A DNA stretch of 64,000 bases from Escherichia phage VerenaGrendelmeier_Bas101, in sequence record PQ850631.1. One strand, 5' to 3'. The notes under the pieces were generated by a model. It saw nothing but the letters and a program-made list of their open reading frames with translations, was not told the DNA's origin and ran no database searches. Each line of letters begins with the position of its first letter. Positions within the stretch are counted from its first letter, which is position 1. The position numbers and the translations under genes were made by a program. This document shows positions 6,585 through 63,012 of this stretch, piece after piece.

Positions 6585-6850
6585 CGTATAATGACGTATC
6601 ATCCGTATCAAGTAAGTTGTTGTTTTCAAAAGAATCTTACGGATGATACGCGTTGCCGCCGTACCATATAGGAATTCAAATAAATTAATTTAAAATTATA
6701 TATCTAATTTAATTTTATTTTTTTATAAACTCTTATATATGAAAAGTATCCGTATCATCCGTATCATCCGTAGCACACCAGTGATAGCGCGACTTATACA
6801 CCGATACGGATAAAAATACGCCTCATTTTATCCGTATCATCCGTATCACA
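6585..6850. repeat. control region A: conserved 14-mer CGTATAATGACGTA, 9-bp ATCCGTATC iterons and AT-rich tract
   Basis: 14-mer at 6585-6598; iterons at 6597-6610, 6637-6666 (inverted), 6748-6773 (three tandem units), 6803-6812, 6828-6848; AT-rich 6670-6745. Confidence 0.6.
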
Positions 6851-6905
6851 CTAATAAAGGCGCGGCTATATCGGTTGTTATACATATTCAAACCATAATT
6901 ATTGT

Positions 6906-52893: not shown

Positions 52894-53129
52894 TGGAAGA
52901 TTATATCAACGCTATGTATATGGCATTCTATGTCGTGCAACTTCCCAATGGCGCGGTATTTTATGGCGAGTATACCTTTGACGTTCAATATGACGTTTCA
53001 GAGCGTACAGTGTTAACAAGGGAGTTGATTGCGGACCTTAAGGACGACATCAAACGCGTCGCGCGGCAGCAGTTCAATTTGGATGACACAGTCATCGTTC
53101 GAATTACCGGAATAACAGAGGTGCAGTGA
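52893..53129 (+). CDS. hypothetical small protein
   Basis: start moved to ATG 52893. Confidence 0.35.
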   Translation: MEDYINAMYMAFYVVQLPNGAVFYGEYTFDVQYDVSERTVLTRELIADLKDDIKRVARQQFNLDDTVIVRITGITEVQ

Positions 53130-53458
53130 TGACCCGTGATCAGATACTCGCCGCGCATGAGCGTGGACTGATAAAGGAAGTGTGGAAGAAGGCCAATGCA
53201 TTTGCTGATTCTTATTACTTCTTAAAGAAGTGCATAAAAGAAAATGCAAGAATGGGCAACACAGTATTGACTTTCAATCTTCTGTCTTATGGCGAAAGGC
53301 TTAATGCAATATATGCTTGTAGACTAGCCAGCATGAAGTTTGATAGAGGAAATGACGGAGAGTTGACCATCTATCGATTCTCTCACCGGACGGGTGATAC
53401 AAAGATAACAAGGACACGTGAACAGATAGAGATTGACCTACTCCACTATGTAAAATGA
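53126..53458 (+). CDS. hypothetical early protein
   Basis: 110-aa ORF, followed by terminator. Confidence 0.45.
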   Translation: MMTRDQILAAHERGLIKEVWKKANAFADSYYFLKKCIKENARMGNTVLTFNLLSYGERLNAIYACRLASMKFDRGNDGELTIYRFSHRTGDTKITRTREQIEIDLLHYVK

Positions 53459-53463
53459 ATATC

Positions 53464-53511
53464 AAAAAGGTGAGCTAAATGCTTGCCTTTTCTTTTATCA
53501 ATACCTATACT
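53464..53511 (+). terminator. terminator-promoter cassette, copy 1
   Basis: GGTGAGC / GCTTGCC stem with G-U wobbles 53469-53487, U-run; descending arm supplies TTGCCT -35 (53483-53488), 17-bp spacer, TATACT 53506-53511. Confidence 0.55.
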
Positions 53512-53543
53512 CTTTTCATCAAGACGAACAATTGAGGTGAATT

Positions 53544-53861
53544 ATGATTTACTTAGGAATGGACCAGGAACAAAACGAGTTGCTAGGAAGCGTGTTAAAC
53601 GTAGACTTGAACACAGCTGTACACATCAAGCCTTGGCCAGAGGACCACGGCGACGTAGTTGTACCCGTTGCGCCTTGGACGCGTTACGTGGCCATTGACA
53701 ATGACGGCCTCGTACATTGTTATTCAGAAAAGCCGACTTACTTCGAAAAGTATCACCAATGGCTGATGACTGGATGGGCAAAGGTGCGCTGTTGCGGCGA
53801 AGTCAGTCTGGAAGGCTGGAGCTTCGAGGCTAGTGAATCGTGTGTCGAGGTGAAATTATGA
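53544..53861 (+). CDS. hypothetical early protein
   Basis: 105-aa ORF; shares A.D..G....EKP....QWL motif with 57338..57829. Confidence 0.45.
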   Translation: MIYLGMDQEQNELLGSVLNVDLNTAVHIKPWPEDHGDVVVPVAPWTRYVAIDNDGLVHCYSEKPTYFEKYHQWLMTGWAKVRCCGEVSLEGWSFEASESCVEVKL

Positions 53862-54076
53862 ATGCCGCGCTGGGTAAGTTGTCGTTCAATAAGCGTAACG
53901 AATTGCGCATGGTGTCGCGCTTTCAACAAACGCATTTATCACTAATCAAGATTGCAAACAAGGCCTACTCTCTAAATTGTCCTGAAGAAGAATGGAAAGA
54001 ATTGAATGAGCGTCATAAACAATTACAAAAGGCTGCATTTAAGCTGCAGCAATATGCTATGGAGTATGCAAAATGA
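53858..54076 (+). CDS. hypothetical small protein
   Basis: start moved to ATG 53858. Confidence 0.35.
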   Translation: MNAALGKLSFNKRNELRMVSRFQQTHLSLIKIANKAYSLNCPEEEWKELNERHKQLQKAAFKLQQYAMEYAK

Positions 54077-54456
54077 GAATGAAGCGTTGCCCTTACTGCC
54101 ACGATGTGATGCATCTTCCACACGAAGAGTTTGTGCAGCACATGACTAACTGTGATAAGAATCCTAAGAGCGAAAGCCAACTTGAAGAAAGAATGTTCTT
54201 GGTGTCATTCAAAGCTTCTGCTTATGAAGTGCAACGTTCTTACGGCGCACCAAGTACGATTTACTGTCCAACAACGTTGAGAAGCGACATCGACTCAATT
54301 CAGCTTTCGACTTGGATTAACGTTAAGGAAGGAGTCACGCCTCACTTTATTGCGCGCATTCAATCTCAGATTCTACAAATCAAGCGCGAATACAACCGTG
54401 ACATCACTGAAGTGAAGGTGTTGTCTATCACGCCGATGAATAAGGAGATGCCGTGA
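54073..54456 (+). CDS. zinc-finger-like early protein
   Basis: 127 aa; N-terminal CPYCHDVMHLPHEEFVQHMTNC. Confidence 0.4.
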   Translation: MRMKRCPYCHDVMHLPHEEFVQHMTNCDKNPKSESQLEERMFLVSFKASAYEVQRSYGAPSTIYCPTTLRSDIDSIQLSTWINVKEGVTPHFIARIQSQILQIKREYNRDITEVKVLSITPMNKEMP

Positions 54457-54713
54457 ACAAGGGTCCGATGACGAAGTTGGCCGTTGCCGCGCGGAAGCTT
54501 CGACAAGCCGTTAATGGGTCGCGGCCCGTGGCATTAACACTCGACGACGCAAAGGCACTGGTAGAGCTACTCGACGAGCACAACCGACGCAAGAATCTGG
54601 AGAACACATTACGCTGGCGCGTTACTCCGAAAGGGCGGGAGAGTGAAAAGAAAGCTTACTTGCGACGCAAACTAAGGTCAGTCGGCCTCCACGAAGAAGC
54701 AAAGAATATTTAA
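54453..54713 (+). CDS. hypothetical small protein
   Basis: 86-aa ORF, followed by terminator. Confidence 0.4.
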   Translation: MNKGPMTKLAVAARKLRQAVNGSRPVALTLDDAKALVELLDEHNRRKNLENTLRWRVTPKGRESEKKAYLRRKLRSVGLHEEAKNI

Positions 54714-54716
54714 TTC

Positions 54717-54763
54717 AAAAAGGTGAGCTATATGCTTGCCTTTTTATTTGACTGTATTATACT
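54717..54763 (+). terminator. terminator-promoter cassette, copy 2
   Basis: near-identical to copy 1: stem 54722-54740, U-run, TTGCCT 54736-54741, 16-bp spacer, TATACT 54758-54763. Confidence 0.55.
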
Positions 54764-54791
54764 TAGTTCATCAAGCAAAGGAGATTTGATT

Positions 54792-55043
54792 ATGCGTATC
54801 AAACCAGCAACCCATCGAGTCCAAGACCTAAGTGGCTTTCTTGAGAAGCAAATTAACATTAATGAATTGAAAGGTGATATTTCAGCGTATTTTTCAATTA
54901 AGCAGATGCAGTTGGATGCGCAAGAAGATGGTGATATGGAAATGGCTGCTGCATTTGGATCAAGTATGAGACAGATTCGTGAGAAGTATGACGAAAGAGT
55001 TTGGAAAAAAGAGATTGGATTGATTCAAGCAAAGGAGAAATGA
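54792..55043 (+). CDS. hypothetical small protein
   Basis: start moved to ATG 54792 behind AAGGAG, downstream of the terminator-promoter element. Confidence 0.4.
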   Translation: MRIKPATHRVQDLSGFLEKQININELKGDISAYFSIKQMQLDAQEDGDMEMAAAFGSSMRQIREKYDERVWKKEIGLIQAKEK

Positions 55044-55045
55044 TT

Positions 55046-55351
55046 ATGAGTTACGACGAAAGGTTTGGCAGAAGCGTATTGTTTCATGATGCTGTTTGGA
55101 TGGACAGCCAAGATGTTGTCTGCGTAGCGTTGAATGAATCTTATAACGGTGTGCTCAAGCCGTTCAAAATCGGTGAGACATACGAGCTGTTTCACGGATG
55201 GTTGACGCGTCGCAACAACCTTCCTGATATGGAAGTCTGGTGGATAGAATACAAGGGTCAGGCTCATCGGTGCAAGGTTGTAGAGATGCACGGCGTCAAA
55301 TACTATCAATCGATTATCAGCGGCTTTGTTTTTAAAGAGGGTGAGATATGA
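55046..55351 (+). CDS. hypothetical small protein
   Basis: start moved to ATG 55046. Confidence 0.4.
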   Translation: MSYDERFGRSVLFHDAVWMDSQDVVCVALNESYNGVLKPFKIGETYELFHGWLTRRNNLPDMEVWWIEYKGQAHRCKVVEMHGVKYYQSIISGFVFKEGEI

Positions 55352-58710: not shown

Positions 58711-58736
58711 GAGGGCCGATTGGCCCTTTTTGTTTG
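58711..58736 (+). terminator. rho-independent terminator ending early operon
   Basis: GGGCC / GGCCC stem, 4-nt loop, then 9-nt T-run. Confidence 0.65.
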
Positions 58737-58744
58737 CCTGTGGT

Positions 58745-58980
58745 ATGTGAGGATTTATTATCGGATAAAGCGATTGATTTGTGCAAATCTATTAGAGGGT
58801 CATGGGTAGTGAGGATTGTGACGTGAATTTTGTGTCTTGAATATGTGTGCGAATCTGGAAGATTATTGTACTGTGGTGCTGTGGGATTGTAGAGGGAATC
58901 ACTAGGAATTGGAGCGTGTACCGTGGTGTGTGGTCCTGTAGGCTGCGCCGTCTATGGGATTGTCGCTTGAAATTAAAAAG
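58745..58980. repeat. G+T-rich non-coding stretch with GGATTGT repeats
   Basis: plus strand has very few C; GAGGATTGTG at about 58811, GGGATTGTAG at about 58883, GGGATTGTCG at about 58966, plus degenerate copies. Confidence 0.5.
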
Positions 58981-59021: not shown

Positions 59022-59310
59022 CGTATAATGACGTAAGATTTGGACCTATCCGTAGTTCACTCCACACACTTCTATGGTGCGCCGCGACTGGGTTCAGTGG
59101 TACATCTTACGGATGATACGGATGATACGCGTCGCCGCTATACTTTATACAACTTTGAAAAAAACAATTAACTCCATTTTGAATTAATTTAAATTAATTT
59201 TTTTCTACATCCTCATACTTATACTAAACTTATATTTATACGTATTATCCGTAAGATATAAGTAAAAACAAAGACTTGCGGCAATACGGATGATACGTCA
59301 CGATACGCTT
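59022..59310. repeat. control region B: same 14-mer CGTATAATGACGTA, iterons and AT-rich tract as region A
   Basis: 14-mer 59022-59035; CTTACGGATGATACGGATGATACGCGTCGCCGCTA 59107-59140 matches 6637-6666; iteron copies at 59046-59055, 59243-59257, 59282-59307; AT-rich 59145-59240. Confidence 0.6.
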
Positions 59311-61460: not shown

Positions 61461-61600
61461 AATAAACTCCTAGTTGGGAGAGGCGTTAACGACCTATTCG
61501 TTAACTCATCCCGTCCCGATATGAGTACATTATAATATAGTGTAGAAAAAAGTAAAGCACTTTTTCGATAAAAATGCGATAAATTATTTTATCTTTTTTC

Positions 61601-62549: not shown

Positions 62550-63012
62550 TCGCGTAAGTCCTTGTTTTATATAGACACCTATATCGGACCGTTAGGGCGG
62601 GTCGCGTAAGTCGTTGTTTTATAAAGGCGCAAAACTTTCCCTTCGTTCCGAACTAAAACGAGGAATATGCCGACCCTTCGCCCGAAAATAGTACGCATGC
62701 GAAATCACATGCATCTCGAATAATCCCCACCGATATTATCCTACACGCAATCATTCGCTTTCGAATCATTATGCTTCATATTATTATGCGTCGAATCATT
62801 CGCTTTCGAATTGTAACGCTGGAAACTGTAACGGCGATTGATTATTGCGTTCGTGTGGTTTTTAGGGCATGGGTCTTTTGGTGCGTTTTGGTGCTTGATG
62901 GAATTTGCGGTACACTAATCAAAATACGACACATTTGGTCCACTAACTTTTCAAAGAAAAAGTCCTAGACAGTACCGTACTATTTTGTACCCACAGGAAT
63001 TTGCAGTACACT
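62550..63012. repeat. non-coding region with three families of direct repeats
   Basis: TCGCGTAAGTCnTTGTTTTATA at 62550 and 62602; AATCATTCGCTTTCGAAT at 62749 and 62794; GGAATTTGCrGTACACT at 62900 and 62996. Confidence 0.55.

Follow-up and report, generated by a model that had tools for sequence, protein, structure and literature searches.

Composite elements that join a terminator hairpin to a promoter have been described as PeSL (promoter-early stem-loop) cassettes in T4-like phages (Arbiol et al. 2010, PMC2839356; Comeau et al. 2014, PMC4122927), and as promoter-coupled terminators in bacteria, including 540 pairs in E. coli (Fletcher et al., bioRxiv 10.64898/2026.08.19.745784). Closer to the phage analyzed here, a 'putative transcriptional terminator, -10.10' has been annotated in vB_EcoM_WFC and WFH (MK373777 and MK373776; Korf et al. 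2019, PMC6563267). The two cassettes reported below belong to these already described kinds of element, PeSL cassettes and promoter-coupled terminators. What appears to be new, judging from genome comparison, is that gene insertions adjoin them, in relatives and, in one case, in the phage itself.

The window, i.e., the whole stretch of 64,000 nucleotides that was analyzed, comes from Escherichia phage VerenaGrendelmeier_Bas101 (PQ850631.1), a Wifcevirus-like E. coli myophage; Wifcevirus is placed in Lindbergviridae in the record of one relative. Both cassettes lie in a plus-strand gene array that opens with primase genes, downstream of a promoter-like site at ~46.2 kb; the term 'early' that the sequence-only reading applied to this array is an assumption. 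The two repeated elements were found at the positions, and with the sequences, given by the sequence-only reading, and comprise, with their neighbors, the following features:

53456–53458, plus strand: TGA stop codon of gene N (53126–53458), 5 nt before the cassette 1 A-tract
53464–53496, plus strand: predicted cassette 1 terminator; its orthologue carries a terminator annotation in WFC and WFH
53464–53468, plus strand: cassette 1 A-tract
53469–53475, plus strand: cassette 1 5' arm GGTGAGC (AGGTGA is Shine-Dalgarno-like)
53476–53480, plus strand: cassette 1 loop TAAAT
53481–53487, plus strand: cassette 1 3' arm GCTTGCC
53488–53496, plus strand: cassette 1 T-tract TTTTCTTTT
53483–53511, plus strand: cassette 1 candidate promoter; hexamers invariant in relatives
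53483–53488, plus strand: cassette 1 candidate -35 TTGCCT, five of its six bases being the end of the 3' arm
53506–53511, plus strand: cassette 1 candidate -10 TATACT, 17-nt spacer from the -35
53515–53523, plus strand: cassette 1 conserved block TTCATCAAG; start predicted at A 53518 from the position of the -10
53534–53540, plus strand: gene Q ribosome-binding site (RBS) GAGGTGA, followed by the gene Q ATG at 53544
53544–54713, plus strand: four-gene module between the cassettes (Q, S, U and V, all ORFans)
53544–53861, plus strand: gene Q (phrog_1972, function unknown)
53858–54076, plus strand: gene S
54073–54456, plus strand: gene U
54453–54713, plus strand: gene V (TAA stop codon at 54711–54713)
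54717–54749, plus strand: predicted cassette 2 terminator; its orthologue carries a terminator annotation in WFC and WFH
54717–54721, plus strand: cassette 2 A-tract
54722–54728, plus strand: cassette 2 5' arm GGTGAGC
54729–54733, plus strand: cassette 2 loop TATAT
54734–54740, plus strand: cassette 2 3' arm GCTTGCC
54741–54749, plus strand: cassette 2 T-tract TTTTTATTT
54736–54763, plus strand: cassette 2 candidate promoter (-35 TTGCCT at 54736–54741, 16-nt spacer, -10 TATACT at 54758–54763)
54767–54775, plus strand: cassette 2 conserved block TTCATCAAG; predicted start at A 54770
54778–54783, plus strand: RBS AAGGAG behind cassette 2, followed by an ATG at 54792
54771–54797, plus strand: left copy of a 27-nt direct repeat (D1, 89% identity) that flanks gene W, covering the 5'UTR, RBS and ATG of cassette 2
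54792–55043, plus strand: gene W (83 aa), directly behind cassette 2
55025–55051, plus strand: right copy of the 27-nt direct repeat, supplying the RBS and ATG (55046) of gene Y
58714–58761, plus strand: possible third, degenerate relative of the cassettes, at the end of the plus-strand array

The 28-nt core, AAAAAGGTGAGCTANATGCTTGCCTTTT, matched only at 53464–53491 and 54717–54744 in the window when up to 3 mismatches were allowed, with 0 matches expected and 0 found in 100 shuffles, and the pair was also recovered by a repeat finder (D19; 35 nt, 91% identity). The sequence-only reading had described the copies as near-identical over ~48 bp. Their alignment bore out the repeat but showed near-identity to be an overstatement: the copies match in a hairpin block (TC plus 28 nt; 34/35), in TATACT (6/6) and in the further block TTCATCAAG (9/9), whereas the -35/-10 spacers (17 nt in cassette 1, 16 nt in cassette 2) are largely unlike. 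Thus, the conserved unit spans 53462–53523 and 54715–54775 (~62 nt), past the ends first reported. The 3' arm runs into TTTTT in copy 2 only, the corresponding stretch in copy 1 being TTTTC.

Exactly two copies were present in each of the 28 public Wifcevirus records in which copy number was counted. Conservation was inspected in 36 copies, two each from the window and 17 relatives. The stems, the -35 TTGCCT, the -10 TATACT and TTCATCAAG, the 9-mer at the predicted start, were invariant in all 36, and variation was found only at loop positions 3–4, the first A of the A-tract, the spacer, the discriminator and the leader. In the flanking genes, by comparison, ~40% of the columns were variable. 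For cassette 1, 1 of 43 columns in the functional blocks varied versus 157 of 372 in the flanks (p = 1.7e-8), and for cassette 2, 2 of 43 versus 84 of 227 (p = 5e-6). The two paralogues differ from each other in the same pattern as the genomes do, with identical blocks and different spacers. These sequence comparisons confirm the cassettes as real and conserved throughout the genus, and we propose that the two copies are old paralogues that have stayed alike only at working positions.

On the plus strand, the hairpins of cassettes 1 and 2 fold at -13.7 and -14.7 kcal/mol (z = -3.8 and -4.9, respectively; equally good folds in 0 of 200 shuffles), and both are weaker when folded as the minus strand. 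The stem, which appears in the terminator scan list, has a 7-bp core, extended to 11–12 bp by A/U pairs, and a 5-nt loop, and is followed on its 3' side by a U-rich tract; hairpin and tract begin 5 nt (cassette 1) or 3 nt (cassette 2) past a coding-strand stop codon. The two mismatches in the stem are G.U on the gene strand only and A.C on the minus strand, which points to a terminator acting at the RNA level. The same two hairpins were annotated as terminators by ARNold in the WFC and WFH records. The stems, being invariant, offer no covariation to prove the pairing and, the hairpin being weakish, termination could be slight. Collectively, these sequence features support the identification of the hairpins as intrinsic (Rho-independent) terminators of moderate strength. 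Folding of the whole intergenic regions and of the predicted leaders revealed no structure beyond the hairpin (leader z ~0), and no Rfam family matched positions 53300–54900 at E <= 1.

A -35 TTGCCT within the descending stem arm, followed by TATACT, had been pointed out previously, and both hexamers are indeed present in both copies at the indicated spacing (TTGCCT-17-TATACT and TTGCCT-16-TATACT). They match the sigma-70 consensus at 9 of 12 positions, lie 17 nt (cassette 1) and 16 nt (cassette 2) apart upstream of a gene, within the usual 16–18 nt, and appear to be under selective constraint, both being invariant while spacer, discriminator and leader vary. The T-tract fills the first 8 spacer positions of the candidate promoter, and the predicted leaders, of 26 nt (cassette 1) and 22 nt (cassette 2), carry a strong RBS. 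The -35 has only 4 of 6 consensus bases, and 9/12 matches occur at background frequency (38 found versus 30.7 expected). Pbunavirus 14-1, a related phage, uses host RNA polymerase and sigma-70-like promoters. Inspection by eye found no convincing antisense promoter inside the cassette.

Given that the promoter match is no rarer than chance, that earlier annotators picked up the terminators alone and that leaky termination would fit a hairpin with two G.U pairs, the element might be a terminator or 3'-end stabilizing hairpin only, with the hexamers unused and the downstream genes served by read-through from the 46.2-kb promoter. We consider this unlikely. TATACT and TTCATCAAG, 3 nt further downstream, are invariant in the 36 copies and between the paralogues although both lie outside the hairpin and T-tract, whereas the cassette 2 spacer drifts near the flank rate (pi 0.06 versus 0.078). 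Furthermore, both hexamers are found again at intergenic promoter-like sites elsewhere in the phage (6906, 46204, 58734 and others), and spacers of 16 and 17 nt are both within the functional range.

Less probable still is an arrangement of promoter plus operator, in which the imperfect inverted repeat would be bound, as DNA, by a phage or host regulator over the -35, with termination secondary or absent. The two paralogues and all genomes share the exact stem sequence rather than merely its structure, palindromes over the -35 occupy typical operator positions, and dual use as terminator and operator is documented for LexA at the yobI terminator/ruvA promoter. However, the dual constraint imposed by the -35 and by pairing already explains the invariance, and both arm mismatches are transitions that keep G.U on the sense strand only (~1/36 by chance, by our own estimate). 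In addition, the 9-nt T-tract and the upstream A-tract fit terminator rules, and the palindrome has no further copies in the window.

It is also conceivable, but very improbable, that the element is a translation-linked attenuator, in which AGGUGA and an AUG or GUG at the border of the loop and the 3' arm would start a mini-ORF (MLAF...), and ribosomes on it, or those that terminate 3–5 nt upstream, would open the hairpin and set read-through. A Shine-Dalgarno AGGUGA, a 5-nt gap and AUG or GUG occur in all 36 copies, and the loop variants TATAT and TAAGT retain the start codon, a conservation that is weakly tested because only two loop variants exist. The stop codons lie 8–10 nt from the G-C core, near enough, given the general size of ribosome footprints, for a terminating ribosome to cover the 5' arm, and annotators have called small ORFs at the element. 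Nevertheless, neither the length, the frame nor the sequence of the mini-ORF is the same in cassettes 1 and 2 or among genomes, the frame of TTCATCAAG changes from one cassette to the other, and the Shine-Dalgarno and AUG are sequestered within the hairpin. A conserved micro-ORF over the element (Bas98_0076 and Bas99_0075; extended CDS in AV128 and kaset) was likewise rejected, its frame, length and sequence being unconserved; judged by their sequences, these annotations are probably artefacts. Finally, the element might be left over from a local duplication, without any function, or be a repeat that arose by chance; either would fit the mere two copies per genome but is scarcely credible, given that none of the 100 shuffles yields even 2 matches, that throughout the genus the element is far more conserved than the flanking coding DNA and that the paralogues diverge blockwise rather than uniformly.

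Gene insertions adjoin the cassettes both in relatives (genes O, R and X-a-f) and in the window (gene W); 3 of the 4 are flanked by direct repeats of cassette parts, and in 2 the 5' arm AGGTGA is the RBS of the inserted gene. In WFC, a perfect 21-nt repeat, AAATGAATATCAAAAAGGTGA, lies on both sides of gene O and also serves as its RBS; genes X-a-f in RCIP0319 begin at GGTGAGgTAAATaTG, with a weaker flanking repeat of ~12 nt with one mismatch; gene R in CWP003 sits between two RBS-ATG copies; and gene W is flanked by the 27-nt repeat. Absent from the other Wifcevirus records and with its nearest relatives in Kagunavirus (67% aa) and Cronobacter phages, gene W is of foreign origin. The first gene after cassette 2 is replaced among relatives, with the junction adjoining the cassette. 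By a rough count, 5 of ~14 indel events fall at the cassettes, i.e., at 2 of ~22 junctions, and gene indels were found also at junctions without cassettes. As far as genome comparison can tell, the cassettes are sites of gene exchange. None of the 28 records lacks the inter-cassette module, and repeat-to-repeat excision is unobserved because all genomes retain the module between the repeats. Searches on the function of the neighboring genes returned only phrog_1972, of unknown function, and a sub-threshold match to DUF7501.

Several other candidates were rejected. TTCATCAAG occurs 10 times in the window versus 1 expected, with the other eight sites in coding DNA; rather than a genome-wide regulatory motif, this was treated as a codon or composition effect reflecting an excess of AAGCTT/ATCAAGC-type words (AAGCTT occurs 59 times). 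A T4 MotA-box reading of AAATGCTTGC was discarded, its TGCTT lying 19 nt from the -10 by our own count; in T4 middle promoters, the box-to-(-10) distance is ~12 nt. The element had no match in 5,426 E. coli genomes searched for a host origin. Matches in Asteriusvirus are generic perfect-stem terminators between convergent genes, and an unrelated 90-kb IMG/VR contig has the same stem in a plain terminator without a correctly spaced -10; no homology was inferred in either case. At 58714–58761, a hairpin GGGCC-GATT-GGCCC and a T-run are followed by TTGCCT (58734)-16-TATTAT; the T-tract/spacer there resembles that of cassette 2 in relatives at 17 of 20 positions (by eye, no significance test).

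The composite reading agrees with all the sequence-level analyses performed (fold, strand asymmetry, conservation footprint and hexamer recurrence). Considering the anatomy, strand asymmetry, genus-wide footprint and insertion junctions observed, we regard it as probable that each element is a compact plus-strand cassette of terminator and restart promoter that is also a recombination landing site. Termination and initiation themselves, their efficiencies, polymerase interference and timing are what we infer from these observations. In the transcript, AAAAA-GGUGAGC-loop-GCUUGCC-UUUU(C/U)UUUU would form a Rho-independent terminator with a 7-bp core and two G.U pairs which, because it starts 3–5 nt past the upstream stop codon, would attenuate transcripts from the ~46.2-kb promoter. 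At the DNA level, the -35 TTGCCT of a host sigma-70-type promoter with the -10 TATACT would consist of the final five bases of the 3' arm and the first T of the T-tract. Transcription would then restart at the A of TTCATCAAG, ~22–25 nt past the point of termination, with a short leader and a strong RBS. Promoter-bound RNA polymerase probably raises termination, as in bacterial promoter-coupled terminators, because it would sit within 35 bp of the release site. The four-gene ORFan module and the downstream hypervariable block would thereby each receive their own transcription units, and the Shine-Dalgarno-like 5' arm and the leader/RBS may provide the short homologies where foreign genes enter or leave.

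More tentatively, the cassettes might be PeSL-type gene-capture sites outside T4-like phages with a three-way overlapping code, a possibility that we hold to be rather doubtful. The 5' arm would act as a Shine-Dalgarno mimic giving translation signals to genes recombined upstream of the terminator, the 3' arm as the -35 of the restart promoter, and the leader/RBS as homology for downstream insertions. In that case, foreign ORFs (the Kagunavirus-like gene W, for example) would arrive in an insulated slot in which the signals for expression are already in place.

Wifcevirus phages have been little studied, reportedly replicate very fast and are of interest for therapy and detection. If confirmed, the composite cassettes would provide a first transcription-unit map for the large ORFan array of these phages, as well as a 62-bp insulator-plus-promoter part for engineering them. 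The gain is incremental, because the idea of such cassettes as gene-shuffling junctions is an earlier one and two relatives already carry annotations of the terminators. The annotated terminators are orthologous hairpins at the same two intergenic positions; however, the WFC and WFH records give only the 19-nt hairpin, called automatically by ARNold, and leave the promoter, paralogy, genus-wide conservation and insertion junctions undescribed.

Like bacterial promoter-coupled terminators, the cassettes lie between tandem genes, with stem-loop DNA providing the -35 of the next promoter and the T-tract inside its spacer. The predicted distance from termination to start, ~22–25 bp with both ends inferred, is within the 35-bp window of that class but differs from its modal ~10 bp, and the cassettes differ further in being phage elements with two sequence-identical paralogues. 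The expected effect, a rise in termination through promoter-bound polymerase, is transferable because this class is known from the phage's own host, E. coli.

The cassettes share their layout with PeSLs; no sequence homology is claimed. Within ~70 bp, both have a stop codon, an A/T-rich tract, a stem-loop terminator/attenuator, a sigma-70-like -35/-10, a Shine-Dalgarno and a start codon. A -35 set in the stem has experimental precedent, both in promoter-coupled terminators and in a described PeSL subclass whose stem-loop overlaps the -35. G-T pairs have been noted in PeSL stems, and the nt-1 consensus (A3-4G3-loop-C3T3-4, promoter TTGYVH-N17-TAWWAT) is very near the Wifcevirus element. PeSLs are found in a variable region, between small ORFans, and are linked to insertions, deletions and replacements between close relatives; the cassettes, too, are composite short intergenic units of a variable ORFan region at which indels and replacements between close relatives occur. 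Recombination between PeSLs yields mini-circles or deletions. In contrast to the T4-like myoviruses with ~50 PeSLs, which are concentrated in hyperplastic regions, Wifcevirus (Lindbergviridae in one record) has only two copies per genome, plus perhaps one degenerate copy, and never lost its inter-cassette module in 28 genomes. Moreover, insertions upstream of the Wifcevirus hairpin reuse its 5' arm as an RBS, a detail not found in the PeSL text consulted. If confirmed, the Wifcevirus elements would extend composite terminator/promoter cassettes as gene-shuffling junctions beyond T4-like phages.

The two elements that the sequence-only reading had described as near-identical units of about 48 bp, at 53464-53511 and 54717-54763 (hereafter cassettes 1 and 2, with hairpins 1 and 2), are present with the claimed sequences. 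A 28-nt core, AAAAAGGTGAGCTA[A/T]ATGCTTGCCTTTT, matches the 64-kb window at two sites and no others with up to 3 mismatches allowed, none of 100 shuffles contained two matches, and the pair was also recovered by an independent repeat search (D19). Alignment of the copies confirmed that they match but modified the claimed near-identity, which is blockwise and extends over a slightly larger unit. The TC, the hairpin and the first Ts are identical at 34 of 35 positions, the spacers (17 nt in cassette 1 and 16 nt in cassette 2) are mostly unlike each other, TATACT is shared in full (6/6) and, after three variable bases, so is the block TTCATCAAG (9/9). The leaders diverge and end in strong ribosome-binding sites, with ATGs at 53544 and 54792. 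Thus, the true repeat unit is about 62 nt long (53462-53523 and 54715-54775).

Both hairpins are built like an intrinsic terminator, predicted to be moderately strong, because a stop codon lies 3-5 nt before each hairpin start and each hairpin carries an A-tract on its 5' side and a 9-nt T-rich tract on its 3' side. For the + strand RNAs the folding energies are -13.7 and -14.7 kcal/mol (z = -3.8 and -4.9), a level that none of 200 shuffles reached, and the - strand folds are weaker (-11.6 and -9.7), two internal pairs being A.C mismatches there. The two positions at which the arms, GGTGAGC and GCTTGCC, are not complementary in DNA both form G.U pairs in the sense transcript. These folds mark the hairpin as a strand-specific element at the RNA level. 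In GenBank, WFC and WFH carry the feature 'putative transcriptional terminator, -10.10', which originates from an automatic ARNold run, on both orthologous hairpins, and neither record annotates a promoter there. The cassette element had no match in Rfam or in E. coli genomes, and other phages yielded generic terminator look-alikes only. In one unrelated phage (L021 357-381, on an IMG/VR contig of 90,155 nt), an identical stem with the identical two G.U pairs, AAGGTGAGC-gtaat-GCTTGCCTTTTT, stands as a plain terminator ahead of a ribosome-binding site, without a correctly spaced -10; it could be a coincidence or a transferred terminator.

The proposed placement of the -35 within the descending stem arm was borne out, five of its six bases being the end of the 3' arm. 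The predicted promoters, TTGCCT-17-TATACT in cassette 1 and TTGCCT-16-TATACT in cassette 2, are 9/12 matches. Matches of this quality are no commoner in this region than expected by chance (38 found versus 30.7 expected), and the case for a promoter therefore rests on footprint, placement and hexamer recurrence. The predicted starts, A 53518 (leader of 26 nt) and A 54770 (leader of 22 nt), are correctly placed, and the cassette hexamers recur at other intergenic promoter-like sites of the same phage:

6906, intergenic promoter-like site, TTGCCT-17-TATAAT
46204, intergenic promoter-like site at the head of the + strand array, TTGACT-16-TATACT
58734, intergenic promoter-like site, TTGCCT-16-TATTAT
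several further intergenic promoter-like sites, - strand, TATACT

Searches turned up no transcript maps for any Wifcevirus. A host-type promoter would be plausible in the Wifcevirus lineage, because the related Pbunavirus 14-1 depends on the host RNA polymerase and has 26 mapped sigma-70-like promoters. Elsewhere in the window, a three-copy promoter family at 61556 (-), 61601 (+) and 61999 (+), probably within the terminal-repeat region, shares the context AAAAAGTGC-TTTACT-16/17 nt-TATA[A/C]T-GTTTTATATCGAGA. At 29412-29340 on the - strand, a terminator and a promoter follow each other without overlap: the hairpin AAAGCCGGA-aatc-TCCGGCTTTTCTTTT is followed about 17 nt further on by TTTACT-16-TATACT and a ribosome-binding site with ATG.

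The cassette region is 86-92% identical to that of Wifcevirus myophages of E. coli and Shigella, including TH35, Bas98-100, WFC, WFH, ECML-117 and vB_Eco4M-7. Exactly two cassettes were found in each of 28 Wifcevirus records (28/28) and likewise in each complete IMG/VR Wifcevirus contig. In the 36 copies compared, from the window and 17 relatives, neither arm of the stem varies, nor do the -35 TTGCCT, the -10 TATACT and TTCATCAAG; all variation falls in the third and fourth loop bases, the initial A of the A-tract, a single base of the T-tract, the spacers and leaders, and the three positions that follow the -10. An unchanging stem would be expected if the -35 role fixes the 3' arm and pairing fixes the 5' arm. 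Variable columns were counted in the functional blocks (hairpin, -10 and 9-mer) and in flanking coding sequence.

Variable columns in functional blocks and flanks
Cassette 1: blocks 1/43, flanks 157/372, Fisher p 1.7e-8
Cassette 2: blocks 2/43, flanks 84/227, Fisher p 5e-6

Drift in the cassette 2 spacer is about as fast as in the flanks (pi 0.06 versus 0.078), and the sites that differ between the paralogues are those that vary among orthologues. If gene conversion accounted for the identity of the blocks, the spacers should also have become alike, and selection on the functional blocks is therefore the better explanation. Public annotations place small ORFs across cassettes (Bas99_0075, L002 13584-13676; Bas98_0076, L003 3491-3583) or extend a CDS across them at its N-terminus (AV128, L006 4775-5137; kaset, L012 4784-5140); these look like annotation artefacts, because their frames and lengths vary.

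The + strand array, with primase genes followed by some 35 small ORFs, extends from the promoter-like site at 46.2 kb as far as a terminator at 58714, and before 58 kb the two cassettes are its only substantial intergenic gaps. From this layout, we infer that the cassettes set apart the four ORFan genes Q-S-U-V (53544-54713) as a module, and likewise the hypervariable block that follows. The sole matches of the Q-S-U-V and neighbouring proteins were phrog_1972, of unknown function, and a sub-threshold DUF. Where the + strand array ends (58714-58761), the terminator GGGCC-GATT-GGCCC with a T-run stands ahead of TTGCCT-16-TATTAT; its T-tract/spacer (CTTTTTGTTTGCCTGTGGTAT) is similar to the cassette 2 spacer of relatives, and the site may be a degenerate third cassette. 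Wifcevirus relatives have a direct terminal repeat of about 3.7 kb, which by coordinate transfer would start at about 59 kb, shortly after the array ends. The motif TACGGATGATACG / ATCCGTATCATCCGTA is clustered around AT-rich stretches at 6590-6870 and 59100-59300, with 9-mers such as GGATGATAC occurring 10 times and a 53-nt repeat shared between 6638-6690 and 59117-59169. The 59-kb cluster lies near the expected start of the terminal repeat, and the two clusters may serve as binding sites for a regulator, as iterons or as a signal at the terminal-repeat boundary. Two closely spaced direct-repeat pairs lie at 62550-62626 (25 nt, 92%; D10) and 62733-62820 (43 nt, 74%; D17). AAGCTT, the HindIII site, is found 59 times in the 64 kb, which is unusual for a coliphage, and words such as TCATCAAGC and TCAAGCTTG rank with the commonest 9-mers; both excesses are probably a codon/composition effect.

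In a gene-order map of 18 genomes, several gene presence/absence events abut the cassettes:

gene O, 64 aa, in WFC and Bas100, immediately upstream of hairpin 1
genes X-a-f, in RCIP0319, upstream of hairpin 2
gene R, in CWP003, behind cassette 1, between two GAGGTG..ATTATG copies
gene W, 83 aa, 54792-55043, in the window and in no other Wifcevirus record

In WFC, gene O stands between the two perfect copies of a 21-nt direct repeat, AAATGAATATCAAAAAGGTGA, comprising the stop region of gene N, which ends before cassette 1, and the 5' arm; the left copy acts as the ribosome-binding site of gene O (AAGGTGAtttATG). At the left junction of X-a-f, GGTGAGgTAAATaTG, arm and loop appear to be reused as Shine-Dalgarno sequence and start codon, although the junction repeat, about 12 nt with one mismatch, is weaker evidence. 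Gene W lies between the copies of a 27-nt direct repeat (89%) of the cassette 2 leader, ribosome-binding site and ATG, and its nearest relatives, which come from Kagunavirus siphophages (63-67% aa) and from phages of Cronobacter (49%), point to horizontal acquisition. Furthermore, the first gene after cassette 2 has been replaced exactly after the ribosome-binding site in several lineages. A rough count places about 5 of 14 indel events at 2 of about 22 gene junctions; since other junctions have indels too, the cassettes would be insertion hot spots rather than exclusive sites.

The reading of both elements as a terminator joined to a promoter agrees with all sequence and comparative tests run and is supported at that level. 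The finding that parts of the cassettes flank inserted genes, and that the 5' arm is put to use again as a ribosome-binding site, adds to it a modest extension of the concept of promoter-early stem-loop (PeSL) cassettes to another phage family. In T4-like phages, promoter activity, terminator activity and mini-circle formation of PeSL have been shown by experiment, and in one subclass the stem-loop overlaps the -35 (PMC2839356; PMC4122927). The Wifcevirus cassettes resemble PeSL in anatomy and in their association with gene shuffling, but belong to a non-T4 lineage, number only two per genome and show no sign of excision. With the -35 in the stem and the T-tract in the spacer, they also resemble the recently described promoter-coupled terminators, which are widespread in bacteria including E. 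coli and in which termination is raised by a coupled promoter within about 35 bp (Fletcher et al., bioRxiv 10.64898/2026.08.19.745784). The predicted stop-to-start distance in Wifcevirus, about 22-25 bp, falls inside that window of about 35 bp but off the modal 10 bp of promoter-coupled terminators.
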